Positions 6,891-34,471 of a DNA stretch of 64,000 nt are shown here, in pieces. Made by a program: the position numbers and the translations under genes. Source of the stretch: an uncultured Eubacterium sp. (lineage in GTDB: Bacteria; Bacillota; Clostridia; Oscillospirales; Acutalibacteraceae); the NCBI RefSeq assembly GCF_900539325.1, contig NZ_UQCC01000003.1. One strand, 5' to 3'. The stretch's first letter is position 1. The number at the start of each line of letters is the position of its first letter. The notes beneath the pieces are model-generated. The model ran no database searches and was not told where the DNA came from. It saw only the letters and a program-made list of their open reading frames with translations.

Positions 6891-8264
6891 ATGGCACAAT
6901 TATGGAAGGGCAGGTTCAAGAAAGAGCTTGCCAAAGAAACCAACGACTTTAACTCATCCATCGGCTTTGACTGCCGTATGTTTGAGCAGGATATTAAAGG
7001 CTCGATTGCACACGCAACAATGCTTGGTGCAACGGGAATTATCGACAAGAGCGAAAGCGACAAAATCGTTGACGGCTTAAACGATATACTGAATGACATC
7101 AAAAGCGGCAAGCTTAGCATAGATATGGAAGCCGAGGACATCCACACATTTGTTGAGGGCGAACTCACGGCAAGGCTGGGACAAACGGGCAAGCGACTTC
7201 ACACCGCACGCTCAAGAAACGACCAGGTTGCACTTGACATTCGCCTTACTCTCCGTGACGAGATTGACGAAATCATTGCAAAACTCAAAGGTCTTGTAAC
7301 CGTTCTTTGCAACAAGGCGGAGGAGCACAGCAAAACGATTATGCCGGGCTACACACATCTTCAAAGAGCACAGCCAATCACATTCGGTCATCATTTGATG
7401 GCGTACTGTGCAATGATTTTGCGTGACATTGACCGCCTCGGCGATGTTAAAAAGAGAATGAACATCTGCCCGCTCGGTTCGGGTGCTCTTGCAGGCACAA
7501 CCTATCCGCTTGACAGAAATATGGTTGCGGATTTGCTCGGATTTGATGACATTACATACAATTCGCTTGACGGCGTATCGGACAGAGATTTTTGCATTGA
7601 ACTTGCAAGTGCACTTTCGCTTGTAATGGTGCACCTTTCACGCTTCAGCGAAGAAATCATTATGTGGTGCAGTTGGGAGTTTAAATTTGTTGAGCTTGAC
7701 GACGCATTTTCAACAGGCTCATCAATTATGCCGCAAAAGAAAAACCCTGATATTGCAGAACTTGTAAGAGGCAAGAGCGGACGGGTTTTCGGCGACCTCA
7801 CTACCCTGCTCACCGTTATGAAAGGCATTGCTCTTGCATACAACAAAGATATGCAGGAGGACAAAGAAGCTATATTTGACGCTGTTGACACGGTGAAAAT
7901 GTGCCTCAACGCATTTACTCCGATGATTGACACAATGACTGTGCTCAAGGACAATATGCGAAATGCAGCGGCAAAGGGATTCATCAACGCTACGGACTGT
8001 GCGGATTATCTTGTCGGCAAGGGTTTGCCGTTCAGAGATGCGTACAAGTGCACAGGCGAACTTGTTGCACTTTGCATAGACAAGGGGCTTACGCTTGAAA
8101 CGCTTCCGCTTGAAGAATATCAAAAGATTTGCGACCTCTTTGATGACGAGGTTTACACAGCGATTAATCTTGAAAAATGCGTAAAAGACAGAAAGGTTGC
8201 AGGCTCTCCGTGCCCTGAAAATGTTTTGGCACAGGTTAAAGCCGCAAGAGAAAAAATCAAATAA
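6891..8264 (+). CDS. argH: Argininosuccinate lyase.
   Basis: 457 aa. Fumarate-lyase signature GSSIMPQKKNPD and ArgH-like N-terminus. Confidence 0.95.
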   Translation: MAQLWKGRFKKELAKETNDFNSSIGFDCRMFEQDIKGSIAHATMLGATGIIDKSESDKIVDGLNDILNDIKSGKLSIDMEAEDIHTFVEGELTARLGQTGKRLHTARSRNDQVALDIRLTLRDEIDEIIAKLKGLVTVLCNKAEEHSKTIMPGYTHLQRAQPITFGHHLMAYCAMILRDIDRLGDVKKRMNICPLGSGALAGTTYPLDRNMVADLLGFDDITYNSLDGVSDRDFCIELASALSLVMVHLSRFSEEIIMWCSWEFKFVELDDAFSTGSSIMPQKKNPDIAELVRGKSGRVFGDLTTLLTVMKGIALAYNKDMQEDKEAIFDAVDTVKMCLNAFTPMIDTMTVLKDNMRNAAAKGFINATDCADYLVGKGLPFRDAYKCTGELVALCIDKGLTLETLPLEEYQKICDLFDDEVYTAINLEKCVKDRKVAGSPCPENVLAQVKAAREKIK

Positions 8265-8282
8265 CACATCGAGGTGTTAACT

Positions 8283-9128
8283 ATGATAACAATTACCGAC
8301 AAAACACAATTTGACGATGTTGGAGAAAACAAAATCATCCACGGCGACATAAACAACATTGAATTTGAACAAAGCAGTATTACCTTTAACGGTTCAAACA
8401 ACATAATCGTGATTGAGAACGGGGTTAAGATGAAAAACTGCATGCTGAAAATCAACGGTGAAAACACGCTGTTTTACCTGAGTGAAAGCAAGCATTGGTA
8501 CTATCTTGACATCACGGGCAACAACAATACTTCAATTTATTTTGGCAAGAACTGCTTTCTCAACGGCAGACTTGTTGCCGTTACTTCCGAAAGACAAAAC
8601 ATTTTCATCGGCAACGACGGATTGTTTTCTTACGGAATAACTTTGCGCACAGCCGACCCGCATTTGGTATTTGACTGCGAAACAAAACAACGCATAAACC
8701 ACAGTGCTTCGGTGCTTTTGGGTGACCATGTTTGGCTCGGTCAGGGTGCAATGCTCCTCAAAGGAACGCAAATCGGATCGGGTTCTATCATCGGAGCGGC
8801 GGCAGTGTGTGCCGGCAAAAAGGTGCCGTCCAACGCATCTTATGCGGGAAATCCTGCCAAGCTCATCAAACAGGGAGTGTTCTTCACCAACAAGTGCGTT
8901 CATCAATGGACAGAGGAAATGACTGCCGAGAACGAGATTGACAACAGCGACAAATGGATTTATTCGCACGACAAAAACACGGTGAGCCTTGCAAGTGTTG
9001 ACGAAGCAATTAAAAAGTGCAAGTCGGCAGAAGAAAAGCTTGAATACCTCCAAAACGGTCTTCCGAAAGGCAAAAACAGATTTTATATTGAACCTAAAAA
9101 AACTAAAAAAGGTTTATTTTCAAGATAA
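8283..9128 (+). CDS. Hexapeptide-repeat (left-handed beta-helix) acyl/acetyltransferase family protein with a roughly 90-aa C-terminal extension.
   Basis: Repeated [LIV]G-x4 hexapeptide pattern (VLLGDHVWLGQGAMLLKGTQIGSGSIIGAAAV). RBS GAGGTG before the ATG at 8283. The track ORF begins at an upstream GTG at 8274. Confidence 0.6.
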   Translation: MITITDKTQFDDVGENKIIHGDINNIEFEQSSITFNGSNNIIVIENGVKMKNCMLKINGENTLFYLSESKHWYYLDITGNNNTSIYFGKNCFLNGRLVAVTSERQNIFIGNDGLFSYGITLRTADPHLVFDCETKQRINHSASVLLGDHVWLGQGAMLLKGTQIGSGSIIGAAAVCAGKKVPSNASYAGNPAKLIKQGVFFTNKCVHQWTEEMTAENEIDNSDKWIYSHDKNTVSLASVDEAIKKCKSAEEKLEYLQNGLPKGKNRFYIEPKKTKKGLFSR

Positions 9129-9132
9129 AGCA

Positions 9133-9170
9133 AAAGAGTACGAAGCAAAGAAAGCCTCGTACTCTTTATT
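9133..9170. terminator. Bidirectional intrinsic terminator between the convergent acetyltransferase gene and the 5-gene operon.
   Basis: Hairpin aaagagtacga...tcgtactcttt flanked by T-runs. Confidence 0.6.
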
Positions 9171-9177
9171 TTCTGTG

Positions 9178-10041
9178 TTATAATTTTGCAAAAATTTTGG
9201 AATACCGTGTATTCTTACGCATTTGCTCACGGTTTATCATATGCTGTGCAAATACGAACAGGACCGTGCCGATGAGCCAAACAACTATTCCGGCAATAAT
9301 CCTAAAGAGCAAAATATTATTTGCCATATTGCCAAACGCACTGCTCCACACGGCAGGTGAAACCGTAACCGTCCCTACATGTGTAAGCCTCATCACAAGC
9401 GATGACAAAACCGTTGCAACACCGCCTGCCATAATTCCGCTTGAAAAGTACAGCACAAACTGTACCTTTTTATCATAAATATACGCTAAAAGAAAAGCTG
9501 CAAACGCCAAAATAACAATGCAAATTGAAAAAGAATGAATCGACCTTGTGTTTTGCTTTTGCATATCGTTTTGCAAAAATTCAAGGTTATGAATTCCGAC
9601 GGTATCCGAATAAATCTGCTGGGCTTCCGCAGAAACAATGTCAATGGTTTTATCAGATATTTTTATATCATTTGCTTCGATATATTCACCAATTGTTGAC
9701 TTAAAGTAATTATATCTGCTACCGTTTTTCAGCGTTGCATCGTTTTCATCAAACAAGAATTCTGCCGCTTGATTAAGGCTTTCTTTTGTATCAAATTTCA
9801 CCTTTACACTATCAAAAATATCAAACGGAAGATTGCTTTTCGTTGACAAGGTCTTATACTTTTCAGTCAGTTGCTTATCGCACTCGTCTGCCAAAGCCTG
9901 AGTTGAAAAGGATTTGATATAAAAATTCTTATTACCTATTGTTAAGTGATTTATGCCCGATATAACGGCAACAACAAGCACAACCGCAGTTATTGCCGAC
10001 AGCAAATAAGACAAAATTTTGCGTGAGGAAGCAAACATCAT
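9178..10041 (-). CDS. Uncharacterized polytopic membrane protein (operon gene E). Topology: N-terminal TM, roughly 140-aa extracytoplasmic domain, three C-terminal TMs.
   Basis: 287-aa ORF. Hydrophobic segments ILSYLLSAITAVVLVVAVISGI, ICIVILAFAAFLLAYIY, SGIMAGGVATVLSSLVM, IIAGIVVWLIGTVLFVFA. Paralogous to gene B (TIGN-x-FY-K and L-EK-KT..P blocks align). Its ATG overlaps the stop of gene D. Confidence 0.6.
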   Translation of the reverse strand: MMFASSRKILSYLLSAITAVVLVVAVISGINHLTIGNKNFYIKSFSTQALADECDKQLTEKYKTLSTKSNLPFDIFDSVKVKFDTKESLNQAAEFLFDENDATLKNGSRYNYFKSTIGEYIEANDIKISDKTIDIVSAEAQQIYSDTVGIHNLEFLQNDMQKQNTRSIHSFSICIVILAFAAFLLAYIYDKKVQFVLYFSSGIMAGGVATVLSSLVMRLTHVGTVTVSPAVWSSAFGNMANNILLFRIIAGIVVWLIGTVLFVFAQHMINREQMRKNTRYSKIFAKL

Positions 10042-22045: not shown

Positions 22046-23415
22046 TATTCAATAACCACCGTAACAATAGAGTCGGAACCGATTTCTATTTGATTTTTAA
22101 ATTCGCCGTTGTAGACTTCTTTAAGTTCCTCGTCTTGCACAGAAGCAATAATCTGCATTTTATCAAAATCGCCGTCAACGGTAATGCTTTGACTTTCGCC
22201 CTCATTTACGGCAACAAGCACGGTTTTGTTATCGGGAGTCAAAAACGCAAACACATTAAAATCGTTGTTATCCTCGCTCGGTCTGAAGCCTAAATCAAGC
22301 ACAACGGAACCAACGGGAACAAATTTTGAAAAATGGGCAAAGCCGTAATATCTTTTTGCCACATACCAATCGGAAAAATCAAAGTCGGCGGTAATCATAG
22401 CGTCCGAATAATCAAATTCGTCCTCTTTAATCGAGAAATTATTAACGGCAACCCAAGAGGTCCAGCTGACGCAACCGGAATAAACAATATCCTGACCGAT
22501 AATTCTCGCCGTTATAAGTGCTCCCTTAAAATCTTTTGTGTGGCTTTTGTTAGGAAGTTCACACCATTCGCTCATATCAAAACGAAGCGACGAATGAGTA
22601 TCTACGCACAGTTCCTTAAACTCATATCTTTCCTCCGGTCGGTTATCGCTGTGATAAGAATGAACTGCAAAAACATCAAGCACCCTCATTATCATCTCAT
22701 CAGCTGTCAGTGCTGCAAGATATTCGGGAGTTTTACCGAGATACTGTCCGCTTTCGGGTCCGTAAAGTTTGACCGGCATATCCCTCAAAATTATCTCCTC
22801 GGCGAACATACGTAAAATCTCAACAAGTTCCTCGGTTTCATAATGGCAACCCTCCTGCCAAACAGAAGAACCGCCCCACTTCCATTGCGGCTCGTTAATC
22901 GGACTGATGTACTTTACGGGATAGCCCTCATCAAGAAAATGCTGTGCAACATCAAGAATGTAATTAACAAACTTTTTGTAGTTCATTTTCGGTATATTGC
23001 AGGTGCTGTAAAGAAAACTTCCCGAAGCCTGACCCGTTGAACACTGCGAATAGTGCGGTGAGTTTGCAAACAAAATCAAAGTGTCGATATTGCCGAGTTC
23101 AAGCGACTTTTTCATCATATTAACAGCATTTGAATCTTTTGAAAAATCCCAGCTGAGTTCTTCGGTTTCTCTGTCATATTGCAAAAAGCTTTCTGTAATT
23201 CTCCACGGATTTTCAACTCTATAATTATTCATATCGGTACCGCCGCCGATATTATAGCGATATATATTAAGATTAAGCCCGTCATTACCATAAAGCAAGT
23301 GTGCGATTTTATCAGCAGTTTCGCCTTTTGGGCAAGCCTGACTCCACCAACAGGCAGAAGTTCCCCAGCCTTTTAAGGTATGACATTTTTCAGCATCTTT
23401 AAAATTTATTTCCAT
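22045..23415 (-). CDS. Glycoside hydrolase, probably family 30. Cytoplasmic (no signal peptide).
   Basis: RBS GGAGA plus ATG at 23415 (MEINFKDAEKCHTLKGWGTSACWWSQ). The track ORF begins 94 codons upstream at an alternative start. GH30-like W-rich TIM-barrel motifs. The stop overlaps the MATE start. Confidence 0.55.
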   Translation of the reverse strand: MEINFKDAEKCHTLKGWGTSACWWSQACPKGETADKIAHLLYGNDGLNLNIYRYNIGGGTDMNNYRVENPWRITESFLQYDRETEELSWDFSKDSNAVNMMKKSLELGNIDTLILFANSPHYSQCSTGQASGSFLYSTCNIPKMNYKKFVNYILDVAQHFLDEGYPVKYISPINEPQWKWGGSSVWQEGCHYETEELVEILRMFAEEIILRDMPVKLYGPESGQYLGKTPEYLAALTADEMIMRVLDVFAVHSYHSDNRPEERYEFKELCVDTHSSLRFDMSEWCELPNKSHTKDFKGALITARIIGQDIVYSGCVSWTSWVAVNNFSIKEDEFDYSDAMITADFDFSDWYVAKRYYGFAHFSKFVPVGSVVLDLGFRPSEDNNDFNVFAFLTPDNKTVLVAVNEGESQSITVDGDFDKMQIIASVQDEELKEVYNGEFKNQIEIGSDSIVTVVIE

Positions 23416-23536
23416 ATTATCTCCTTTGCCGCAAAACAATACAATTACAAAGACAGTATAATTTTTACATAATAAAATGTCAATTAAAATAGACAAATTA
23501 ATAAAAACTTTGTATAATGAACATATGGAATATAAA

Positions 23537-24346
23537 ATGATAGGTTTGGATTTGGACGGAACTTTGCTCAAAGACGACAAATCCATAGACACAAAAACAA
23601 AAGAATATCTCGAAACGCTTTCTTCAAACGGCGTACACATCGTACCGATTACAGGCAGACCGCTCAGCGGAATACCCGACTGTGTACGAAACATCAAAGG
23701 TGTTGACTATATTATTTCTAACAACGGCTCAAAAACCGTTTTGAATTCTACAAACGAAACACTCTTTTCACTTGCAATGGACAACGCAACAAGCAAAAAG
23801 GTTATTGAATCCGTTAAACAGACAGGTGCGATTTTTGAAGTGTTTTTAAATCACTACGGCTACTGTGAAAAATTTGTTTTCGACCATTACAAAGAGGTTT
23901 ACACGGGCACTGTGCTTGGCGACTACATTTTTTCATCACGAAAACAAGTTGACAGTCTTATGACCTTGTTTGATGACAAAAACGCAGAAGCTGACGAAGT
24001 TTTTATAATCTGCAAAGACAATGACGACAGAGAAATAATAAAAGCGCAGACCGACAAAATAAGCGGTATTCAATATTGTATGCTTGCCGACAGATTTTTG
24101 GAAATTACCAAAAACGGAACGGACAAAGGCACTGCTCTTGAAATGCTGTGCAATCATCTGAAAATCAAGCTCGACAAAGTAATCGCATTTGGCGACGGCG
24201 AAAACGATTTGCAATTTTTGAACAAAGCCGGCACAGCAGTTGCAATGGGCAACGCATCCGACAGCGTAAAAGCCCAAGCAGATATAATCACCGACACCAA
24301 CAACAACCAAGGCGTGCTGAAAGCATTAAAAAACCTTATAAGATAA
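23537..24346 (+). CDS. Cof-type HAD-IIB sugar phosphatase.
   Basis: MIGLDLDGTLL DxDGT motif and a C-terminal GDGENDLQFL motif. A TAGACA-N17-TATAAT promoter at 23490-23518 lies inside the longer track ORF, so I call the start at 23537 (possibly 23525). Confidence 0.8.
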   Translation: MIGLDLDGTLLKDDKSIDTKTKEYLETLSSNGVHIVPITGRPLSGIPDCVRNIKGVDYIISNNGSKTVLNSTNETLFSLAMDNATSKKVIESVKQTGAIFEVFLNHYGYCEKFVFDHYKEVYTGTVLGDYIFSSRKQVDSLMTLFDDKNAEADEVFIICKDNDDREIIKAQTDKISGIQYCMLADRFLEITKNGTDKGTALEMLCNHLKIKLDKVIAFGDGENDLQFLNKAGTAVAMGNASDSVKAQADIITDTNNNQGVLKALKNLIR

Positions 24347-24351
24347 CAAAT

Positions 24352-24385
24352 AAACCGTAAGGACAGATACAATCCTTACGGTTAT
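24352..24385. terminator. Bidirectional terminator hairpin aaccgtaagga/tccttacggtt.
   Basis: 11-bp stem plus T-runs, between the convergent Cof and gltB genes. Confidence 0.75.
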
Positions 24386-24402
24386 TTTTATATAAACATA
24401 TA

Positions 24403-25134
24403 TTAATTAGGCGTATAAAGGTTTGCATACGGTCGGGAAGATGCCGGAGCAAGCTTTTTGAAAGGCTTTGACATAATCTCATCATAGTCCTTATCAAAAT
24501 ACTTGCAATACTTTTTTACATATGTTTTAAGTTCTTTTTCGTCATCTTTTGTAAGCGACTCCACATTAATGTTAGGTGCAAGGTTTTCCTTTGGAACTTT
24601 GCCTCTGACAAAAATCTTGCCGCCGTGCATACCCGACGCACAGTGAGTGCCGAACAACTTTTCTCCCCTTTTCATATTAAGACCGAGGAGAACGATTGTG
24701 CCCCCTGCCATATACTCACCGAGAAACGAGCCTGCATTTTCGCCGATAACAAGAACAGGACGCATCTGCCTGAACTCTTTCATATGAATACCGCCACGGC
24801 ACGCAACATTGTCCTTGATATAAATCTGACCGTCACGCATACCGTAACCCATAGCGTCACCGCTGTGACCGTGGACTACAATTTCACCGCCGCCCATCGT
24901 GTTGCCCACAGCGTCCTGACAGTTGCCGTAAACAACGATTCTGCCGCCGTTGAGATAGCAAGCCATATCATTGCCCGGTGTACCGTACACCTCAATGGTT
25001 TTGCCCTCATCAAGAGCACAGCCGATATATCTTTGACCGTTAACATCTTTAACGGTTGCCTTATTTTTCTTTTCTAATTCCTTTTTAATTTCGTCGTTAA
25101 CTTCTTCATAACGGCGAAGTCCTGCTTCTATCAT
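24403..25134 (-). CDS. Glutamate synthase GXGXG-domain subunit (archaeal-type GltB3, domain 4 of the large subunit).
   Basis: 243 aa. Repeated G-x-G-x-G beta-helix motifs (VYGNCQDAVGNTMGGGEIVVHGHSGDAMGYGM). Confidence 0.8.
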   Translation of the reverse strand: MIEAGLRRYEEVNDEIKKELEKKNKATVKDVNGQRYIGCALDEGKTIEVYGTPGNDMACYLNGGRIVVYGNCQDAVGNTMGGGEIVVHGHSGDAMGYGMRDGQIYIKDNVACRGGIHMKEFRQMRPVLVIGENAGSFLGEYMAGGTIVLLGLNMKRGEKLFGTHCASGMHGGKIFVRGKVPKENLAPNINVESLTKDDEKELKTYVKKYCKYFDKDYDEIMSKPFKKLAPASSRPYANLYTPN

Positions 25135-25146
25135 TGCAATCCCTCC

Positions 25147-26673
25147 TTATTCGCCTGCATGCTTGATACCGAGAATTTCCAATTCTTTATCAGAAAGTCC
25201 GATACCTCTGAGCATAAGTCTGTTGCCACGGAGAGAGTCGATAGAGTTGATACCCATACCGCCCATAATTTCCTTAATTTCGTGATTCCAAGCATTGATA
25301 AGATTTACTACTCTCTTGCTTGCAACCTTTGGGTCAAGACGCTTTGTAAGTTCGGGACGCTGAGTTGCGATACCCCAATTACATTTGCCTGTGTTACAGG
25401 TTTGGCACATATGACAACCCATTGCAATAAGAGCCGCCGAAGCAATATAGCAAGCATCCGCACCGAGAGCGATAGCCTTAACAATATCGCTTGAACAACG
25501 GAACGAACCGGAAGCTACAAGAGAAACCTCTGAACGAATACCCTCATCACGAAGTCTTTGATCTGCCGCCGCAAGTGCAAGTTCAAGCGGAATACCAACA
25601 TTGTCACGAATACGGGTAGGAGCGGCACCTGTACCGCCTCTGAAGCCGTCAATAACAACAATATCGGCACCGGCTCTTGCAACACCCGAAGCGATAGCCG
25701 CAATGTTATGAACAGCAGCAATTTTAACGGCAACGGGTTTTTGATTATTTGTAGCTTGTTTGAGCGACCAAATAAGCTGACGCAAGTCCTCGATAGAATA
25801 AATATCGTGGTGAGGAGCAGGAGAAATAGCGTCACTGCCCTCCGGAATCATACGGGCATTTGAAACCTCAACGGTTACTTTCTCGCCCGGAAGATGTCCG
25901 CCGATACCCGGCTTTGCACCCTGACCGATTTTTATTTCTATAAACTTTGAATTGTTAAGATAGTCCTTGTGAACACCGAATCTGCCCGATGCAACCTGAA
26001 CAACAGCATAATCCGTAAAATCTTCAAGTGCCGGATGCAAACCGCCCTCACCTGTGTTGAAAAGGCTTCCGATTTCCTTTGCAGCCATGGCAAGAGATTT
26101 TTGTGCATTAAGGCTGATTGAACCAAACGACATTGCCGAAAACATAATAGGTGTTTCAAGAACAACCTGAGGCGGCATTTCAGTAATTGATTTGCCCTTT
26201 TTTTCAACTTCTAACTTCTTTGGTTTTCTGCCCAAAATCGCACGGATTTCCATAGGCTCACGAAGCGGGTCGATTGACGGGTTTGTAACCTGAGAAGCGT
26301 TGAGCAAAATTTTATCCCAATAAATCGGATAATCCTGCGGATTGCCCATTGCAGACAAGAGGGTTGAACCCGTGCTTGCCTGACGGCAAATCTCCTGCTG
26401 ATAGCGAGGAGTCCAGTTTGCATTGTCACGATAATCGCAAACATATTTTTCTATGCGAAGTGCACCAACCGGGCACAAATCAACACATCTGTGGCAGGCA
26501 ACGCAACCGTTTGAATTTGAAATAACCGTCTTTTTGTCATCTGCAAAAAAGTGACATTCATTTGAGCACTGTGTTACACAAAGTCCGCAATTTGTACAAA
26601 GTGCCTTGTCACGAATAATATTAAAACGACGAGGAATATAATTGATTGCCATATCAGTATTCCTCCTTTTCAT
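25147..26673 (-). CDS. Glutamate synthase FMN-binding subunit with an N-terminal 2x[4Fe-4S] ferredoxin domain (archaeal-type GltB2).
   Basis: Two Cx2Cx2Cx3C(P) motifs (CTNCGLCVTQC and CVACHRCVDLCPVG) followed by a GltS FMN/Fe-S central-domain-like sequence (GEGG, Cys cluster CHMCQTCNTGKC). Confidence 0.85.
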   Translation of the reverse strand: MKRRNTDMAINYIPRRFNIIRDKALCTNCGLCVTQCSNECHFFADDKKTVISNSNGCVACHRCVDLCPVGALRIEKYVCDYRDNANWTPRYQQEICRQASTGSTLLSAMGNPQDYPIYWDKILLNASQVTNPSIDPLREPMEIRAILGRKPKKLEVEKKGKSITEMPPQVVLETPIMFSAMSFGSISLNAQKSLAMAAKEIGSLFNTGEGGLHPALEDFTDYAVVQVASGRFGVHKDYLNNSKFIEIKIGQGAKPGIGGHLPGEKVTVEVSNARMIPEGSDAISPAPHHDIYSIEDLRQLIWSLKQATNNQKPVAVKIAAVHNIAAIASGVARAGADIVVIDGFRGGTGAAPTRIRDNVGIPLELALAAADQRLRDEGIRSEVSLVASGSFRCSSDIVKAIALGADACYIASAALIAMGCHMCQTCNTGKCNWGIATQRPELTKRLDPKVASKRVVNLINAWNHEIKEIMGGMGINSIDSLRGNRLMLRGIGLSDKELEILGIKHAGE

Positions 26674-27754
26674 CTATTTCAAGAGGAACAAAAACAGGCT
26701 GTGCACCGCTGATTGACCAAACCTTTTCAGGGTCGGGACATACAACACGAATAGCCGATTCCTCGGAAGCAAAATACGCTCTGTCGCCCTTTGTAGCCGC
26801 CGTTAGCGAACGAAGCTTAAGTCTGTCGTTAATAGCCAAAAGTCCCTTATTTGAACCGAGGATAACCGAAAACGGGCCGTTAACAAGCGCACCGCTGTAA
26901 ATTGCACGAAGATTTGTAAAATATTCTTTTCTCTCGTCGTCCATACGGTCTATTTCGTCCCATTCCGGAGCCGTAAGTACATCAGCCGCAACATCCATAG
27001 GAAGCTCGTGGTGGCGAAGCAAGTGGTCAAACAGATATGTAATAACCTCTGTATCGGTTTGCATTGTACACTTATAACCGAACTGCTCAATATATCTTCT
27101 GTTTGCGTCATAAGACGAAATTTCACCGTTGTGAACGATTGACCAATCAAGAATGTTAAACGGATGAGCACCGCCCCACCAGCCCGGTGTATTGGTTGGA
27201 AATCTGCCGTGAGCCGTCCACAAATAGGCATCGTAATGGTCAAGCATAAAGAACTCGCCGACATCTTCGGGATAGCCTACCGCTTTGAAGCATCCCATAT
27301 TTTTACCCGATGAAAAGATGTAAGCACCTTCAAAATTTGCGTTTACCTTTGTAACGCACTGAACAACATATTCCTGCTCATCCATACGGGCATCACGCAT
27401 ACGAACTCTGTTCGGCTTGCCGAAATAACGCCAAATATCCGGTCCGTTTTCTATAGATTCCACCTTTTTTGTAGGAATTCTTTCCGCAACATCCACATTA
27501 AAGTGTTTAAAGAGATACTCCTCGCACTTTTGACGGGCATCCTTTGTGTCATAAAACACATGAAAAGCATAATCGTCCTTGTGGTCGGGATAAATTCCGT
27601 AAGCGGCAAATCCGCCGCCGAGACCGTTTGAACGGTCGTGCATTAATGCTATTGACTTGATAATTTCCGAACCGTTAATCGGGTTGCCTTTTTTATCAAT
27701 GATAGCCGCAATGGCACAACCGCTCGGAATTCTTACCTGTCCTTCCTTTAGCAT
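26654..27754 (-). CDS. Glutamate synthase glutamine amidotransferase subunit (class II GATase, archaeal-type GltB1).
   Basis: RBS AGGAGGGAAA plus ATG at 27754. PSGCAIAAII provides the Ntn catalytic Cys after a short propeptide. Overlaps the gltB2 start by 20 nt. Confidence 0.8.
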   Translation of the reverse strand: MLKEGQVRIPSGCAIAAIIDKKGNPINGSEIIKSIALMHDRSNGLGGGFAAYGIYPDHKDDYAFHVFYDTKDARQKCEEYLFKHFNVDVAERIPTKKVESIENGPDIWRYFGKPNRVRMRDARMDEQEYVVQCVTKVNANFEGAYIFSSGKNMGCFKAVGYPEDVGEFFMLDHYDAYLWTAHGRFPTNTPGWWGGAHPFNILDWSIVHNGEISSYDANRRYIEQFGYKCTMQTDTEVITYLFDHLLRHHELPMDVAADVLTAPEWDEIDRMDDERKEYFTNLRAIYSGALVNGPFSVILGSNKGLLAINDRLKLRSLTAATKGDRAYFASEESAIRVVCPDPEKVWSISGAQPVFVPLEIDEKEEY

Positions 27755-27989
27755 ACATTTCCCTCCTAAAAGCATTTATATATCTAAATATATTTTTATA
27801 ATACTACTATGAATTTTATTGTTCAACAGTATAAAAAAATTTTGTAAAATCCGAAAAAAATTAAATATTTTCCACCTTCGTTTTTATGAAATTATACAAA
27901 TAATTTGACAAAAAATTACAAGCAGGAGCAGTCAAAAAACAGATGTGTATTTCTGTCAAAAACTGTTCCTGCCGATTTTCTATTCCGAA

Positions 27990-29726
27990 TTATTCTCCTT
28001 GTAAAGCATCGTATCCTCTTTCTCCGGTACGAACCTTTACAACATCCTCAACATCGTAAACAAAGATTTTACCGTCGCCGATATTGCCGGTGTAAAGAAC
28101 CTTTCTTGCCGCTTCAATAACGGTTTCTACTGGAACAGCCGAAATAACCATTTCAAGCTTCATCTTAGGGTTGAGATTCATTTCTTCAATCTCGACACCA
28201 CGATATTTACGAATATGACCTTTTTGAACACCACAGCCCATAACATTTGTAACAGTCATACCCGTTACGCCGATAGCATTCATAGCCTCTTTGATTTCCT
28301 CAAACTTTGCAGGATTGAATATCATACATACCTTGCTGAGGGTCGGATTTTTTTCTGTTGTATATGTTTCAACAGGAACTGCCTTTTCAACCGGAGCAGA
28401 CGGAGGCATTACATCCATAGCCGGAATAGCCGATACGGCAGAGCCCGAAGCATAGCTTACAGCCGGCATAAAGTCTGCATAAGCCGACGGAAGATTGTGT
28501 TCTGTTGAGTCAAGACCCTTGATTTCCTCTTCTGCATCAACACGAAGGCCGACAGTCTTTTTGATAATAAGGAATGTGATTGTGATTGTTACCGCAGTCC
28601 AAGCAGCAACGGCAACAAAACCCAAAAGCTGAATACCGAGTTGCTTAAATCCGCCGCCGTAGAAAAGACCCTTGCCTACACCGTCGGCGCCTGTTGAGAA
28701 CAAACCTACTGCGATTGTACCCCAAACACCGTTTGCACAGTGAACGGCAACAGCACCTACAGGGTCGTCAATATGGAGCTTTTTGTCAAGAAGTTCTACA
28801 ACCAAAACTACAAGAATACCTGATACAGCACCGATTACAATAGAACCTGTAGCATCAACGCAGTCGCAAGGAGCGGTAACTGCTACAAGACCCGCAAGAG
28901 AGCCGTTGAGTGACATTGAAACATCAGGAGCACCGTCCTTAATCCATGTGAAAATCATTGTTACACAAGTGGCAACGGCAGGAGCCATTGTTGTGGTAAG
29001 GAAGATTGAAGCGAGTGTTTTGGTATCCGTTGCGGCAGCACCGTTAAAGCCGTACCATCCGAACCAAAGGATGAATACACCGAGTGCACCGAGAGTCAAC
29101 GAGTGACCCGGAATAGCCTTTGCTTTGAGCTTGCCTGTTTTCTTATCCTTTACATACTTGCCGATACGAGGACCGAGGAAAGCCGCACCGATAAGAGCTG
29201 AAATGCCGCCTACCATATGAATTGCGGTTGAACCTGCGTAATCGTGGAAGCCCATTTGTGCAAGCCAGCCCTGCGAATTCCAAATCCAACCTGCCTCAAT
29301 CGGATAAATAACTGCCGAGATAACGCCCGAATAAATACAATACGAAATGAACTTTGTACGCTCTGCCATTGCACCTGAAACGATTGTAGCCGCAGTAGCA
29401 CAAAATACAAGGTTAAATACAAACACAGGCCAATTACCGGAACTACCTGCGTAATCGGTGAGCAAACCGAGGGTAGGAAGCCCGAACAAACCGCCGATGT
29501 ATTCCTCGCCCATCATAAGACCGAAGCCTAAAACAATAAACGCAACCGCACCGATACAAAAATCCATCAGGTTTTTCATAATAATGTTACCTGCGTTTTT
29601 AGCACGGGTAAAGCCGCTTTCTACCATTGCAAAGCCGCATTGCATAAAGAATACCAATGCCGCACCTATCATATACCACACCCCATAAACATTATCGGAT
29701 ATGGCCGTCATTATTGAATCTGTCAT
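27990..29726 (-). CDS. amt: Ammonium transporter (Amt) with a C-terminal fused PII (GlnK/GlnB) nitrogen-regulatory domain.
   Basis: 578 aa. 11-TM Amt core, a roughly 50-aa linker, then a clear PII domain (MIFNPAKFEEIKEAMNAIGVTGMTVTNVMGCGVQKGH...IGDGKIFVYDVEDVVKVRTGE). RBS GGAGGAGAG. Confidence 0.9.
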   Translation of the reverse strand: MTDSIMTAISDNVYGVWYMIGAALVFFMQCGFAMVESGFTRAKNAGNIIMKNLMDFCIGAVAFIVLGFGLMMGEEYIGGLFGLPTLGLLTDYAGSSGNWPVFVFNLVFCATAATIVSGAMAERTKFISYCIYSGVISAVIYPIEAGWIWNSQGWLAQMGFHDYAGSTAIHMVGGISALIGAAFLGPRIGKYVKDKKTGKLKAKAIPGHSLTLGALGVFILWFGWYGFNGAAATDTKTLASIFLTTTMAPAVATCVTMIFTWIKDGAPDVSMSLNGSLAGLVAVTAPCDCVDATGSIVIGAVSGILVVLVVELLDKKLHIDDPVGAVAVHCANGVWGTIAVGLFSTGADGVGKGLFYGGGFKQLGIQLLGFVAVAAWTAVTITITFLIIKKTVGLRVDAEEEIKGLDSTEHNLPSAYADFMPAVSYASGSAVSAIPAMDVMPPSAPVEKAVPVETYTTEKNPTLSKVCMIFNPAKFEEIKEAMNAIGVTGMTVTNVMGCGVQKGHIRKYRGVEIEEMNLNPKMKLEMVISAVPVETVIEAARKVLYTGNIGDGKIFVYDVEDVVKVRTGERGYDALQGE

Positions 29727-29749
29727 ATTTCTCTCCTCCTATATTTTGT

Positions 29750-29806
29750 TATAAACAGAAAAAATAAAAACGAAGTGCGAAAACACCGTTTACCGCAAGG
29801 TGTTTT
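29750..29806 (-). terminator. Intrinsic terminator of glnA, lying immediately upstream of the amt RBS.
   Basis: Minus-strand hairpin agtgcaaaacacc/ggtgttttcgcact followed by UCGUUUUUAUUUUUU. Confidence 0.75.
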
Positions 29807-29985
29807 GCACTCCGTTGTGCTAAAGATTAGTGCCAATGCCACAGCCGATTAAGACTGCGGCATTGACCGTACAGCATATAAATGCCATAAGAGAGGGTTC
29901 GCTAAGCGAACCTTGCCCGATATTTCTACCGGACAAGCCGCAATTTACAGGTAACCTGTCTTACCTATAAAACATTTTGGTATGA

Positions 29986-31332
29986 TTAATAGTTAATCAT
30001 ATATCTGTTGATTTCCCATTGAGATACAGCAGTCTTATAAGAATTCCATTCTTCCTTTTTACCTTCAATGTAGTTATTAAATACATGGTCACCGAGAGTT
30101 TCCTTAATGAACGGATCTTCCTCTGCTGCCTTAATAGCTTCTTCAAGAGAACCAGGAAGACAATCAATGCCTGCTGCTTCCTTTTCTTCATCAGAAAGTT
30201 CAAATACATTTTCATCAAATGCAGGAGCCGGCTTCAAACCTTTTTTGATACCGTCAAGACCTGCTGCAAGGCAAAGAGCCATTTCAAGATATGGGTTGCA
30301 AGTTGGGTCAGGACAACGAAGTTCAACTCTTGTACCCTTACCGCGAGCGGCAGGAATACGAACAAGTACAGAACGGTTTGATGTTGACCATACAAGATAT
30401 GACGGAGCTTCGTAGCCCGGTACAAGTCTTTTGTATGAGTTTACTGTTGGGTTTGAAATAGCCGCAATAGCTTTAACATGAGCCATAATACCTGCAATGA
30501 ATGAATAAGCTGTATCGCTGAGTTCAAGATCACCGTTTGGATCATAGAATACATTTTCACCTGTCTTTAAATCATAAAGTGACATATTGGTGTGCATACC
30601 CGAACCGTTGATACCCTCAACAGGCTTTGGCATAAATGTTGCATGAAGGCCGTGCTTTGTAGCATAAGTCTTTACAACATGCTTAAAGGTCATAACTCTG
30701 TCGGCTGTTGTCATAACATCGCCGAACTGGAAGTCAATTTCGTGCTGACCCTGAGCGACCTCGTGGTGAGATGCCTCAATGGTGTAGCCCATTTCTTCAA
30801 GTGCAAGGCAAATATCACGACGGCAGTTTTCGCCATGGTCGATAGGGTTGAGGTCAAAGTAGCCTGCTTCGTCGCCTGTTTCAAGAGTAGGAAGACCGTT
30901 TTCGTCAAGTTTGAAGAGGAAGAATTCACATTCAGGACCTACATTGAAGCCGTAGCCCATTTCTGCTGCTTCATCAATAACCTTTTGGAGAACATTTCTC
31001 GGGTCGCCCTCAAAAGGTGTAACATTGTCTGCTTTATATACAGAACAGATAAGTCTTGCTGTCTGTGCGTTAAGGTGTTTTCTCCAAGGGAAAATTGCCC
31101 ATGTATCAAAATCAGGATGTAAGTACATATCGGATTCATCAATTCTTACGAAACCGTCGATTGATGAGCCGTCGAACATACAATCATTGTTAAGTGCCTT
31201 TTCAAGCTGTGATAATGTGATGGCAACATTCTTCATAATACCAAAAAGGTCGGTAAACTGAAGTCTTATAAACTGTACGCCGTTTTCTTTTGCTTCTTTG
31301 AGGATGTCCTCTTTTGTGTATTTACTCATCAT
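29986..31332 (-). CDS. glnA: Glutamine synthetase type I.
   Basis: GS catalytic motifs and an overall GSI-alpha-like sequence. RBS GGGAG plus ATGATG at 31332. The track ORF starts 11 codons upstream. Confidence 0.95.
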
Positions 31333-31347
31333 AAATACTCCCTTCTC

Positions 31348-31438
31348 TATAATATAAAAAGACAAGGCGTCCCGAAAAATCGGAACGCCTTTGTTCTAAC
31401 TACAATGTCATTATATCCCTGCAATCTGCCGTTGTCAA
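31348..31438 (-). promoter_or_regulatory. glnA promoter and leader: consensus TTGACA-N17-TATAAT (minus strand; -35 at 31433-31438, -10 at 31410-31415), then a terminator-like hairpin (31364-31392) and U-tract directly before the RBS.
   Basis: Exact hexamers with a 17-nt spacer. Leader hairpin aaggcguuccg-auuuuu-cgggacgccuu (9/10 bp) followed by gUCUUUUUAUAUUAU. Confidence 0.6.
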
Positions 31439-31527
31439 CAAAATACGGGATATTTATTCAACTTTGTAAAAATTCAACGGTCGACCTTTAATTTTCAACC
31501 GTCCTCTTTGTGAAAATTATACAACAA

Positions 31528-32736
31528 TCAATTCAAGTCCAAAAACTCTTCGCCGATAATTTTCTTTGAAAGGTCGGTAAAGTACTTTACGCTTGCACCG
31601 TCCTTTGCTTGGTCGGACGCAATATCATCCGTATAATCGGACAGTCTGTAAACCGAAAATTTGTATCCGTTGCCGGTGTTGTGGTAAAAATCAACAACAG
31701 GTGCAAGCTTTGCAGAGGTCACCTGAACCTTGCCGTCAACCCTTTCAACCGTGAGTTCTGCCATACCGCCGCACATTTGATTGAGGTTGGTTTGGTGTGA
31801 AATAAAGTTACCGATTGAGTAATAAACAATCATTTTTTTACCCGTAGCCTCATTTGTAACCCATTCAACAGGCTGAAGAACATGAGGATGCGTACCGATG
31901 ACAATATCCGCTCCGCCGTCAGAGAATATTTTTACATACTTCTTTTGAAGGTCGTTAATCTCGTGACTGTTTTCTGTGCCCCAATGAGGGAATACAATCA
32001 CGCAGTCAGCATTTGCACGGGCTGTTTTGAGGTCTGCCTTAACTTTATTCTCGTCAAGCATATCAACGCACCACGGCTTATCCTCGGGAACAGAAATACC
32101 GTTTGTACCATAGGTGTAATTGAGAAGTGCAAACTTAATGCCGTTTTTCTCATAATATGTAATTGTATTATACTCTTCCTCGATTTTGTTTGTACCGATG
32201 TGAACAACTTCGGGATGCTTTTCAAAAAATTCGCATTCCTTTTCTATGCCGGCAAATTTTTGCACATCAAGAGAGTGATTGGTAGCACAGGTAAACACAT
32301 CAAATCCGGCATTGACAGCCGCCTCTCCGACCTCCCAAGGAGTGTTGAAAAGCGGATAGCCTTGATAATCAAAATCCGAACCGCCAAGCATGGTTTCCTG
32401 ATTTATGCACGCAATATCGGCAGATTTAATATATCCCGAAATATTCTCATAAAATGAAGAATAATCAAGACTTCCGTCATCCTGCTTGCCTGCATCAATC
32501 AAAGTATTGTGAATAAGATTGTCACCCACAGCCACCAAGGTAACTTTTGTATCCTGAGATTGAGTTTGACTTTCGGTGACTGCCGCTTTTGTAGCGGTTA
32601 CAGTAGGATTTGTTTTGTCCCTGTTTGCCGTTACCCTGCCGCTTATTACAAGACCGATAAGAACGGCAACGGCAATGCAAACGGGAATTATAATTGCCAA
32701 AAGATTACCGTTTGATTGTTTTTTCTCTTTAGCCAT
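31528..32736 (-). CDS. CapA/PgsA-family metallophosphoesterase-like protein, N-terminally membrane anchored.
   Basis: 402 aa. N-terminal TM. Motifs VAVGDNLIHN and IGTHPHVLQP typical of CapA (poly-gamma-glutamate synthesis protein family). Confidence 0.65.
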   Translation of the reverse strand: MAKEKKQSNGNLLAIIIPVCIAVAVLIGLVISGRVTANRDKTNPTVTATKAAVTESQTQSQDTKVTLVAVGDNLIHNTLIDAGKQDDGSLDYSSFYENISGYIKSADIACINQETMLGGSDFDYQGYPLFNTPWEVGEAAVNAGFDVFTCATNHSLDVQKFAGIEKECEFFEKHPEVVHIGTNKIEEEYNTITYYEKNGIKFALLNYTYGTNGISVPEDKPWCVDMLDENKVKADLKTARANADCVIVFPHWGTENSHEINDLQKKYVKIFSDGGADIVIGTHPHVLQPVEWVTNEATGKKMIVYYSIGNFISHQTNLNQMCGGMAELTVERVDGKVQVTSAKLAPVVDFYHNTGNGYKFSVYRLSDYTDDIASDQAKDGASVKYFTDLSKKIIGEEFLDLN

Positions 32737-32782
32737 AATTAATCACCTAAATACATTGATTAATATCTATAATCAAAAGTTT

Positions 32783-33859
32783 TTACGCAGCAACAAAGGT
32801 GTAAATTACATATGCAAGGTATCCCAAAAGAGATACAACACCCTGCCAACGCTGAAGTTTTTTTGTAAATATTGTAGGGATAACCGCAATGATAACAGCT
32901 ACCACGCAAATAATCATATCAAATACAGAACCTGCCGATACAGCAAGTGCACCCTGACCCTTGCCCATAGAAACAAATGAGCAGATAGGAAGAATAAGCG
33001 CAAGGTCGATAATGTTTGCACCGAGGATGTTACCTACCGAAAGAGCACCTTCCTTTTTACGAAGAGCGGTGATTGTTGTAACAAGTTCAGGAAGCGAAGT
33101 ACCGATAGCAACTGCAATAACGCCGATTACTCTTTCGCTGATGTGCATTTCCTTAGCAATTCTTGTACCGCCGTTGATGAGAAGCTGTGCACCTACAACA
33201 ATGCAAACCGCGCCCAAAACGAACATAACAATATTTTTAACCCAGTCACCTGCTGTTGCGGTTGACTTTGTAGGAACAACATCGTCCTCTTCCTGCAAAC
33301 CGATACCGTGAGGGTCCGGTTCAATCTGAACCGAACTTTTTTTCATAGAAATAAAGTTTTCGATAAAGAAAGCAATGAAAATTGCAAAAAGCACAACAAC
33401 ACCGACAGTTGAAAGTGTGTGATACTTACCCTCGAGACCCGGAACCTCAACAATACCTGTAAGGCCCGAACCGAGAGCAAGAGCAACAGCCGCCGCAAGC
33501 ATCATAAGACCCTTAGGGGCAAACTCTTTTCTCTTTACGGCAAAAGGCATACACACAATAAATATACCCATAATCATAGCCGTGTTGGCAGTTACGGAGC
33601 CTACTGCATTGCCCGATGCCATATCAACCTTACCGTCAACAGTTGCAACGATTGATACAATCATCTCAGGAAGAGTTGTGGCAACCGATACAATAGTTGC
33701 ACCGATAATAAACTTAGGCACACCGAGCACTTCCGCAATCCAGCTTGCACTGTCTACAAACCAGTCGCCGCCCTTGATAATAAAGATTAGACCTACAACA
33801 AATAAAGCAACAACAATGCCTATATTTGCCGTCTCAAAAAAATTCGACAAAAATTCCAT
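32783..33859 (-). CDS. Ca2+/Na+ (CaCA family) cation antiporter.
   Basis: 358 aa. Two alpha-repeat signatures GATIVSVATTLPE and GTSLPELVTT. Confidence 0.85.
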   Translation of the reverse strand: MEFLSNFFETANIGIVVALFVVGLIFIIKGGDWFVDSASWIAEVLGVPKFIIGATIVSVATTLPEMIVSIVATVDGKVDMASGNAVGSVTANTAMIMGIFIVCMPFAVKRKEFAPKGLMMLAAAVALALGSGLTGIVEVPGLEGKYHTLSTVGVVVLFAIFIAFFIENFISMKKSSVQIEPDPHGIGLQEEDDVVPTKSTATAGDWVKNIVMFVLGAVCIVVGAQLLINGGTRIAKEMHISERVIGVIAVAIGTSLPELVTTITALRKKEGALSVGNILGANIIDLALILPICSFVSMGKGQGALAVSAGSVFDMIICVVAVIIAVIPTIFTKKLQRWQGVVSLLGYLAYVIYTFVAA

Positions 33860-34039: not shown

Positions 34040-34471
34040 TTATTCGTGATCGTGGTCACAGCAATCGCAGCCGCATTCGTCATCGTCATCGAATTCAACA
34101 TCGAATTCCAAAACTTCGCCGCAGTTAGGGCACTCAAACTTGCCCTCTTCGATAGTATCCATATCAACCATAATCTTTTCGTGGCATGTAGGGCATTCAA
34201 CCTCATACTCTTCTTCGTCATCATCACAACAATCGCAATCGCAGTCATCGTCATCATAAACAAATTCTTCAAGGTCTGCCAAATCTTCATCAACAGCGTC
34301 GATTTGATCGCCTACAAGTTCAAGGCCTTCTGTCATATCTTCCATATCTTCTGTAAGATTTTCAAGAACATCGATGATGGCATTGAATACTTTTGTTTCT
34401 TTTTTGTTAGGGTCCAAATCAAGACCGTCAATGAGGCCCTTGAGGTAGCCCAAGCTTTCTGATGTTTCCAT
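34040..34471 (-). CDS. Hyper-acidic small protein with a zinc-ribbon (CPxC...CPxC) and two Asp/Cys clusters (DDDDCDCDCCDDDEEE and DDDDECGCDCCDHDHE).
   Basis: 143 aa, about 40% Asp+Glu. CPTCHEKI...CPNCGEV. Lies immediately downstream of efp in the same orientation. Confidence 0.65.
   Translation of the reverse strand: METSESLGYLKGLIDGLDLDPNKKETKVFNAIIDVLENLTEDMEDMTEGLELVGDQIDAVDEDLADLEEFVYDDDDCDCDCCDDDEEEYEVECPTCHEKIMVDMDTIEEGKFECPNCGEVLEFDVEFDDDDECGCDCCDHDHE

Follow-up and report, generated by a model that had tools for sequence, protein, structure and literature searches.

The Amt-PII fusion gene

In the 64-kb window analysed here (the whole stretch of 64,000 nucleotides from contig NZ_UQCC01000003.1 of an uncultured Eubacterium sp.), we studied a gene at 27990-29726 on the minus strand that joins an ammonium transporter (Amt) in frame to a PII regulatory domain of the GlnK type. 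According to the list of open reading frames (ORFs), the gene is complete, with a single unbroken reading frame from ATG to stop and 578 codons before the stop codon. The product consists of an Amt/Mep/Rh ammonium transporter module (amino acids (aa) 16-411; 28494-29681), a low-complexity linker of 53 aa (aa 412-464; 28335-28493), and a GlnK-type PII domain (aa 465-578; 27993-28334), all on the minus strand. The T-loop of the PII domain occupies aa 497-521 (28164-28238, minus), as delimited by column counts over 81 fusion proteins and by alignment to 1hwu and 2eg1.

Both Pfam domains are full length. The Amt module was matched by PF00909 (Ammonium_transp; aa 16-411, E 2e-119, profile positions 1-395 of 399) and by TIGR00836 ('amt'; 422 bits against an NCBIfam cutoff of 343), and its extent was also supported by alignments. 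PF00543 (P-II) matched aa 465-569 (E 4.7e-24, profile positions 3-102 of 102) and is the sole C-terminal domain; an enzymatic transducer such as a histidine kinase or GGDEF domain is absent from the C-terminus. The hydropathy scan gave 11 hydrophobic blocks, all within aa 12-396 with none C-terminal of them, and the AlphaFold2 (AF2) model has, at low confidence, 11 long helices in the Amt part. The first-pass annotation, made from the DNA letters, had described a natural in-frame fusion in one 578-aa ORF with an Amt core of 11 transmembrane segments, and both statements hold. The peptides that it quoted were also located, the T-loop-region peptide GCGVQKGHIRKYRGVEIEE at aa 497-515 and the C-terminal peptide IGDGKIFVYDVEDVVKVRTGE at aa 549-569. 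Its position for the linker, 29230-29330, was mis-oriented. Read on the minus strand, that interval codes for aa 133-166 of the Amt core, and the linker itself falls at 28335-28493.

Authenticity and distribution of the fusion

The identical 578-aa protein is present in RefSeq as WP_296967992.1 (UniRef100_UPI0025E0C23F) under the name 'ammonium transporter [uncultured Eubacterium sp.]', and in independent samples of ENA and Logan, 7 contigs carry exactly the same protein with identical neighbours. PF00909 and PF00543 are both present in 120/120 of the best database relatives (80-99% identity, 570-586 aa). When one genome per species was scanned, a relative was found to be encoded in at least 600 species-representative genomes. 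The figures for genome loci given hereafter refer to the best 80 of these matches. All 80 loci gave one tblastn alignment running from query residue <=20 to residue >=570, with both domains in the same frame (59-83% identity). Thus, no frameshift or stop, which had been raised as the possible source of an artificial fusion, separates the two domains, as the same product is found on 7 independent contigs and the frame is intact in 80/80 loci.

The cultured carriers of the fusion include Lacrimispora sinapis JR3, Ruminococcus flavefaciens ND2009, Ruminococcus sp. JE7B6, several Butyrivibrio, [Lactobacillus] rogosae, and Lachnospiraceae bacterium 10-1. Other carriers among the matches listed are many metagenome-assembled genomes (MAGs) of Clostridia and several Treponema assemblies. 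A few carrier MAGs are labelled as Bacteroides, Alistipes or Parabacteroides, bin labels in which we place no trust. When the linker and PII domain were used as the query against 1.8 billion representatives clustered at 50% identity, 128 clusters were obtained at E<=1e-30; among the top 150 matches, 54 also match the Amt module (28 with a full-length Amt) and the rest are mostly fragments.

Two short cluster members, P0291 and P0293, were considered as variants split at the linker and were rejected, as they are N-terminal truncations of the Amt part. In some assemblies of a sister clade (P0002 cluster), the called product of the fusion gene is the 413-aa P0291, which starts inside the Amt core (3001-4242 in locus L085; 1212-2453 in L086), and in L086 a separate Amt fragment of 129 aa lies upstream at 702-1091. 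The Amt part of the P0291 loci contains a frameshift, has become a pseudogene, or was misassembled, and the linker and PII domain are still in frame. Further, the representative library contains PII entries with long N-terminal extensions and no Amt (P0131, P0132, P0197, P0208, P0209, and P0252), which were rejected as real alternative architectures since their PII is joined to truncated unrelated domains. The partner fragments derive from a Cys/Met pyridoxal phosphate enzyme, a tRNA methyltransferase, Fer2_4, the N-terminus of CTP synthase, FtsZ, and Prok-E2_B. These entries are probably chimeras of assembly or gene calling, and caution should be exercised in counting PII architectures in representative libraries.

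Conserved residues of the Amt and PII modules

The Amt module has the equivalents of the twin histidines (H170 and H329), the Phe gate (F108 and F227), the Trp of the S1 site (W149), and Asp160 (D162). All of these residues align with their counterparts in 6eu6, 8qj3, and 2b2f, and they are invariant in 51 homologues. The equivalent of S219 in E. coli AmtB numbering is probably Ala.

The closest solved structures of the PII domain are 4rx6 and 4r25 (E 4e-33, 50% identity), followed by the Aquifex and Herbaspirillum GlnB and the E. coli GlnK of the AmtB complex (2ns1_B, 1.7e-27). A total of 39 solved PII chains match the domain at E<=1e-10. The entries 4rx6 and 4r25 are structures of B. subtilis GlnK, with 4rx6 being the GlnK-TnrA complex. 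GlnK is defined operationally by genetic linkage to amt, and in this gene the PII domain is fused in frame to Amt. In the AF2 model, at low confidence, the secondary structure elements of the domain follow the beta-alpha-beta-beta-alpha-beta topology of PII, with strands at aa 464-470, 490-495, 521-528, and 552-558, helices at aa 472-484 and 533-544, and a T-loop hairpin after the second strand.

Several positions of the PII domain are invariant in 81/81 fusion proteins, namely G499 (G37 in canonical PII numbering), Q501 (Q39), Y508 (Y46), R509 (R47), G510 (G48), and K521 (K58), whereas G503 (G41) is kept in 80/81 and replaced by Ser in one. The plug residue R509, the equivalent of Arg47, lies within a YRG motif that is invariant throughout (81/81). 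The B-loop TGNIGDGKIF (T546-F555) and the C-terminal KVRTGE motif of the ATP site (K564 and R566; R101/R103 in canonical numbering) are invariant in the 51 closest homologues. Q39 and K58 act as the switch between two states, an ADP state able to bind Amt and a Mg-ATP/2-oxoglutarate (2-OG) state in which the R47-R47 spacing increases from 31 to 46 Angstrom and becomes too wide for the pores (PMC3198391).

The equivalent of position 51 is Ile513 in the window protein and V, M, I or L in all 81 fusion proteins, never Tyr. Therefore, the Tyr51 site of uridylylation or adenylylation, which is confined to proteobacterial and actinobacterial GlnK/GlnB, is absent. No PII modification is known in Firmicutes (PMC4285133), and to judge from sequence the absence of Tyr51 fits a Firmicutes-type PII and leaves membership of the PII family unaffected. 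A one-residue insertion in the T-loop, E514 (28195-28197, minus), was observed just after this position in 10/81 fusion proteins, those of the window's clade.

The linker and the origin of the fusion

Measured from the Amt C-terminal motif GLDxxEH to the first PII strand, the linker is 46-68 aa long in the 81 homologues (median 55), is of low complexity, and is rich in A, V, S, P, E, and T. Two conserved islands stand out in it, EHxLxSxYAxF (Y416 and F419 in 81/81) and AVPV (aa 449-452, in up to 76/81). The AF2 model treats the linker as disordered, with a predicted local distance difference test (pLDDT) score of 23-28. In PII, the N-terminus lies on the trimer face away from the T-loops, and with a trimer thickness of ~30 Angstrom a tether of some tens of residues is the minimum for docking. 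The observed linker length allows docking and undocking alike.

An ATG is kept at the canonical PII start (M-T/H/Y-K-V) in 28/80 homologues, and the window protein has Leu there. This ATG is apparently a remnant of a formerly separate glnK start, left after the loss of a stop codon in an amt-glnK operon. The gene order amtB-glnK (nrgAB) of Firmicutes is the same as the order of the domains in the fusion, Amt and then PII. We considered whether the vestigial ATG could serve as an internal start for free GlnK, and found no support for this, since motifs resembling Shine-Dalgarno (SD) sequences are not enriched before it (3/28 homologues with the ATG versus 9/52 others).

Leader attenuators and the nitrogen-assimilation neighbourhood

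The leader of the fusion gene (29757-29820, minus) has the organization of an attenuator, with a mini-hairpin, an intrinsic terminator, and a U-tract. The mini-hairpin GCAC-AACGGA-GUGC (29820-29807) overlaps the 5' arm of the terminator (29816-29769; -24.3 kcal/mol, z -4.6), which is followed by the U-tract, and the ATG is ~40 nt downstream. The same arrangement is found in front of glnA (promoter and leader attenuator, 31360-31438, minus; from promoter and terminator scans and folding), where a perfect sigma-70 consensus promoter, TTGACA-17-TATAAT (31438-31410), precedes a hairpin GAAC-AAAGGC-GUUC (31396-31383) and a terminator (31397-31360; -22 kcal/mol, z -5.7). These two hairpins are the only ones of their kind in the window with a following T-run. 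The TTG start given for glnA by the ORF finder (31365) overlaps the leader terminator, and glnA most likely begins at the ATG at 31332, which yields a protein of 448 aa, the length called on other contigs.

Among the relatives, a hairpin with a stem of >=4 pairs, a C:G closing pair, and an AAnGnn hexaloop was found in 55/81 upstream regions of the fusion gene, against 1.3 expected (mean of 200 dinucleotide shuffles, maximum 5). The closing pair is C:G in 70/88 hairpins. The loop (AAnGGn) and 3' stem of the hairpin make up the 5' arm of the intrinsic terminator, and the terminator arms show compensatory changes among relatives. The leader attenuator was seen upstream of the fusion gene in L001, L004, L006-L009, L025, L038-L041, L044, and others. 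Since the same hairpin and terminator precede fusion genes that lack an upstream glnA (e.g., L007), we assign the element to the Amt-PII leader. The first-pass annotation had placed the fusion gene between a 'glnA terminator' and the split glutamate synthase (GOGAT) operon; the neighbours were correctly named, but the 'terminator' appears to be a regulated attenuator of the Amt-PII leader.

The leaders resemble the RNA targets of ANTAR proteins (EutV, NasR, and AmiR substrates) in the A1/G4 hexaloop, the C:G closing pair, and the overlap with the 5' arm of the terminator. ANTAR recognition depends on A1 and G4 of the hexaloop and on a conserved closing pair, and such substrates have been reported upstream of genes for P-II, ammonium transporters, and glutamine/glutamate synthases (PMC3369931). 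The canonical ANTAR motif, however, is a pair of hairpins 5-12 nt apart, and the fusion leaders usually have a single one; 9/70 hairpins have a candidate second (P1) hairpin within 20 nt, where 4.6 would be expected. No Rfam family was found in 23000-33000 at E<=1, and the 301-nt leader gave only chance-level matches. A reading of the glnA-amt spacer as a sigma-54 promoter or a GlnR/TnrA box was rejected by eye, the spacing or consensus being unmet. In the same spacer, a motif CCCTCTCT(T/G) is conserved just after the glnA stop (29871-29897, minus, in the window; also L001, L003, L006, and L044). Between glnA and the attenuator, this motif precedes a short hairpin (ATGGCA...TGCC/TGCT), and a longer covarying hairpin (29867-29832) comes next. 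The region of the CCCTCTCT motif may be a glnA terminator, a processing site or an anti-SD-like sequence.

The gene directly upstream of the fusion is glnA, encoding a type I glutamine synthetase (29986-31332, minus; Pfam Gln-synt_N and Gln-synt_C), which is probably co-transcribed with it. Directly 3' of the fusion gene lies an intrinsic terminator (27921-27973, minus; -27 kcal/mol, z -4.3, followed by a U-run), and downstream of this a split GOGAT of three genes (24403-27775, minus, assigned by Pfam) comprising a GATase_2 subunit (26654-27775), a Fer4+Glu_synthase subunit (25147-26673), and a GXGXG subunit (24403-25134). The gene order of the split GOGAT is identical on independent contigs, and glnA directly upstream with the split GOGAT downstream is also found in L001-L006 and L044. 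In the Treponema and Ruminococcus flavefaciens relatives, a type III glutamine synthetase (GSIII_N) adjoins the fusion gene in place of the type I enzyme (3688-5790 in L074; 9486-11573 in L039, where CTP synthase is at 7882-9483). With type I here and type III in distant relatives, the linkage to a glutamine synthetase recurs with different partners. Farther from the fusion, a 143-aa ORF (34040-34471, minus) encodes a highly acidic, Cys-rich protein (DDDDCDCDCCDDDEEE ... CPTCHEK ... CPNCGE ... ECGCDCCDHDHE) with two zinc-ribbon-like CxxC pairs and no Pfam match on record, and lies beside efp on independent contigs.

A proposed tethered plug and the alternative readings

We propose, with a probability of roughly 0.65, that the fusion protein is an assimilatory ammonium channel with its own covalently tethered, effector-gated GlnK plug. 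Three chains would assemble so that the Amt modules make a trimer in the membrane and the PII domains a second trimer beneath it, held on three flexible tethers of ~55 residues. Under nitrogen sufficiency or low energy (ADP bound, low 2-OG), the T-loops would extend and Arg509 would enter the cytoplasmic pore exits, so that uptake stops. With 2-OG and Mg-ATP bound, the T-loops would be pried apart and the plug withdrawn, opening the channel with PII still tethered. Since Tyr51 is absent, control would be exerted by the effectors alone (ADP versus Mg-ATP/2-OG) without covalent modification, like that of Firmicutes and archaeal GlnK. The fusion would fix the stoichiometry at 1:1, keep the local concentration very high, and make for a fast response, and the tethered PII, being unable to leave the membrane, would not be titrated by cytoplasmic targets. 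Expression appears to be under nitrogen control through transcription attenuation, in which the ANTAR-like hexaloop hairpin would compete with the terminator, both in front of glnA and in front of the fusion gene.

The first-pass annotation had spoken of a 'constitutive' coupling of the channel to its regulator. Stoichiometry and co-localisation are indeed fixed by the fusion, but the block itself is expected to be conditional and effector-gated, as the long disordered linker, the invariant switch residues (the equivalents of Q39, K58, the B-loop, and R103), and R47 point to a conditional rather than a permanent block. The glnA/GOGAT context in the window and the type III glutamine synthetase in distant relatives are counted in favour of an assimilatory channel.

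Certain results weigh against this proposal. The closest solved relatives of the Amt module are sensor Amts, namely Ks-Amt5 (6eu6, E 2.8e-75) and Sd-Amt1 (8qj3/8qpf, E 1.6e-64), and Af-Amt1 (2e-50) and E. coli AmtB (~4e-42) are weaker matches. A regular-expression search found the N1/N2 signature QX6EX15NX2D[F/T]X54-60TX2[S/T], proposed as a signature of ammonium receptors (PMC11152129), at aa 29-117 and in 79/81 homologues. The AF2 monomer, built with 51 close homologues, has a mean pLDDT of 60 and a T-loop below 50, which is too low for docking to be assessed. A search for an ANTAR protein in 10 regulator-sized ORFs of the window and 10 neighbours in 7 loci (L009, L013, L017, L029, L039, L073, and L074) found none, and there is no free PII gene in the 64-kb window.

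The first two of these results are the ground for an alternative in which the Amt would serve mainly to detect external ammonium through the N1/N2 site, in the manner of Ks-Amt5 and Sd-Amt1, with PII as the output module. Such a receptor or transceptor, which we consider unlikely, would gain from the fact that the known receptors likewise bear a C-terminally fused module. The PII domain would join the ammonium signal with 2-OG and ATP and recruit or release partners at the membrane. By its signature, the Amt module belongs to the N1/N2 class, but the signature-bearing 'cluster 2' also includes proven transporters (AtAMT1;1-3 and LeAMT1;1) and many single-domain Amts (PMC11152129), so the signature cannot decide between transport and sensing. 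Besides, no other Amt accompanies the fusion in its glnA-GOGAT assimilation cluster, the R47 plug residue, which a channel blocker requires, is invariant, and PII is not a known enzymatic transducer.

The sensor Amts Ks-Amt5 (Amt-histidine kinase, 6EU6) and Sd-Amt1 (Amt-HAMP-GGDEF, 8QJ3) share with the fusion the N1/N2 signature and a C-terminal cytoplasmic module, fused to an Amt that is trimeric or, in the fusion, would be so (PMC5764959, PMC11152129). In contrast to these, the module fused here is the channel's own inhibitor or regulator rather than an enzymatic transducer, the gene is in an assimilation context (glnA and GOGAT), and loss of transport is not indicated for the fusion. The E. 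coli AmtB-GlnK complex (2NS1/2NUU) and the A. fulgidus Amt-GlnK pairs are built from the same two families as the tethered plug, with Arg47 and the Q39/K58 switch conserved and with a 3:3 symmetry that the fusion would share. The fusion differs from them in being one polypeptide with a ~55-aa tether and no Tyr51 site, and its Amt is in the N1/N2-signature class and not in that of AmtB and Af-Amt1. The B. subtilis AmtB/GlnK pair (NrgA/NrgB; 4R25/4RX6) has a PII that is 50% identical, with the same T-loop type (GCGxQK...YRGV.IE) and no Tyr51; its proteins are separate and its GlnK is free, whereas the fused PII cannot leave the membrane. In essence, the fusion most resembles the Firmicutes AmtB/GlnK (NrgAB) pair made into one chain with an Amt of the N1/N2 class.

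Alternatively, the protein could act as a membrane-anchored signalling hub in which the tethered PII holds or releases partners (a transcription factor or an antiterminator) according to nitrogen status, with gating being secondary. Analogies for such a role are B. subtilis GlnK, which binds TnrA, and the AmtB-GlnK complex of Azospirillum and Rhodospirillum, by which DraG is sequestered. Among solved PII structures the nearest, 4rx6, is the GlnK-TnrA complex itself, and the leader attenuators of glnA and the fusion gene would need an RNA-binding regulator. Neither the window nor the seven loci inspected have a partner gene linked to the fusion, and the argument for a hub is wholly inferential. 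We hold it to be improbable as the principal function, and it is compatible with the tethered plug.

A combined scheme is conceivable but speculative, and we rate it as low as the hub. In this bifunctional transceptor, the N1/N2 site would report external ammonium and the tethered PII internal 2-OG/ATP, and both would jointly control the channel and the membrane sequestration of a putative RNA-binding antiterminator that acts on the single-hexaloop attenuators. If true, the fusion would constitute a nitrogen-sensing circuit complete in itself and characteristic of gut Clostridia and Treponema.

The possibility that the fusion is artefactual or does not function (with amtB and glnK joined by an error in sequencing or assembly or by a recent stop loss, or with free GlnK made from an internal start) might be read into the ATG kept in 28/80 homologues and into the plainly chimeric PII 'fusions' with truncated unrelated domains in public protein libraries, and is practically negligible given the identical product on 7 independent contigs and in RefSeq, the two-domain composition of 120/120 best relatives, the intact frame over the linker in 80/80 loci (complete isolate genomes included), the break of the shorter 413-aa P0291 in the Amt N-terminus and not at the linker, the Leu in place of Met at the vestigial start of the window protein, and the lack of SD enrichment.

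Significance of the fusion

As an object, the Amt-PII architecture is already known, being present in RefSeq and UniRef entries, in precomputed Pfam domain pairs, and in hundreds of species. In a full-text search of ~8 million open-access papers and preprints, we found no description or characterisation of a natural Amt-PII/GlnK fusion, and the fusion appears to be experimentally uncharacterised. To a specialist it is tidy rather than surprising, and current understanding is not overturned. Rather, the fusion is a textbook 'Rosetta-stone' confirmation that the regulation of Amt is the core and ancestral job of GlnK. As far as can be read from the protein itself, it may also provide an example of PII control over an Amt with the N1/N2 signature, a class that includes plant AMT1 and bacterial ammonium receptors. 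A natural, tethered 1:1 complex of channel and regulator is useful for cryo-electron microscopy (cryo-EM) and transport studies.

The public annotation reads 'ammonium transporter' only, which hides the regulator; as a consequence, inventories of nitrogen regulation can wrongly score glnK as absent. This matters since the fusion is the normal form of ammonium uptake in many abundant Clostridia of the gut and rumen (Lachnospiraceae, Ruminococcaceae/Oscillospiraceae, and 'Eubacterium') and in some Treponema.

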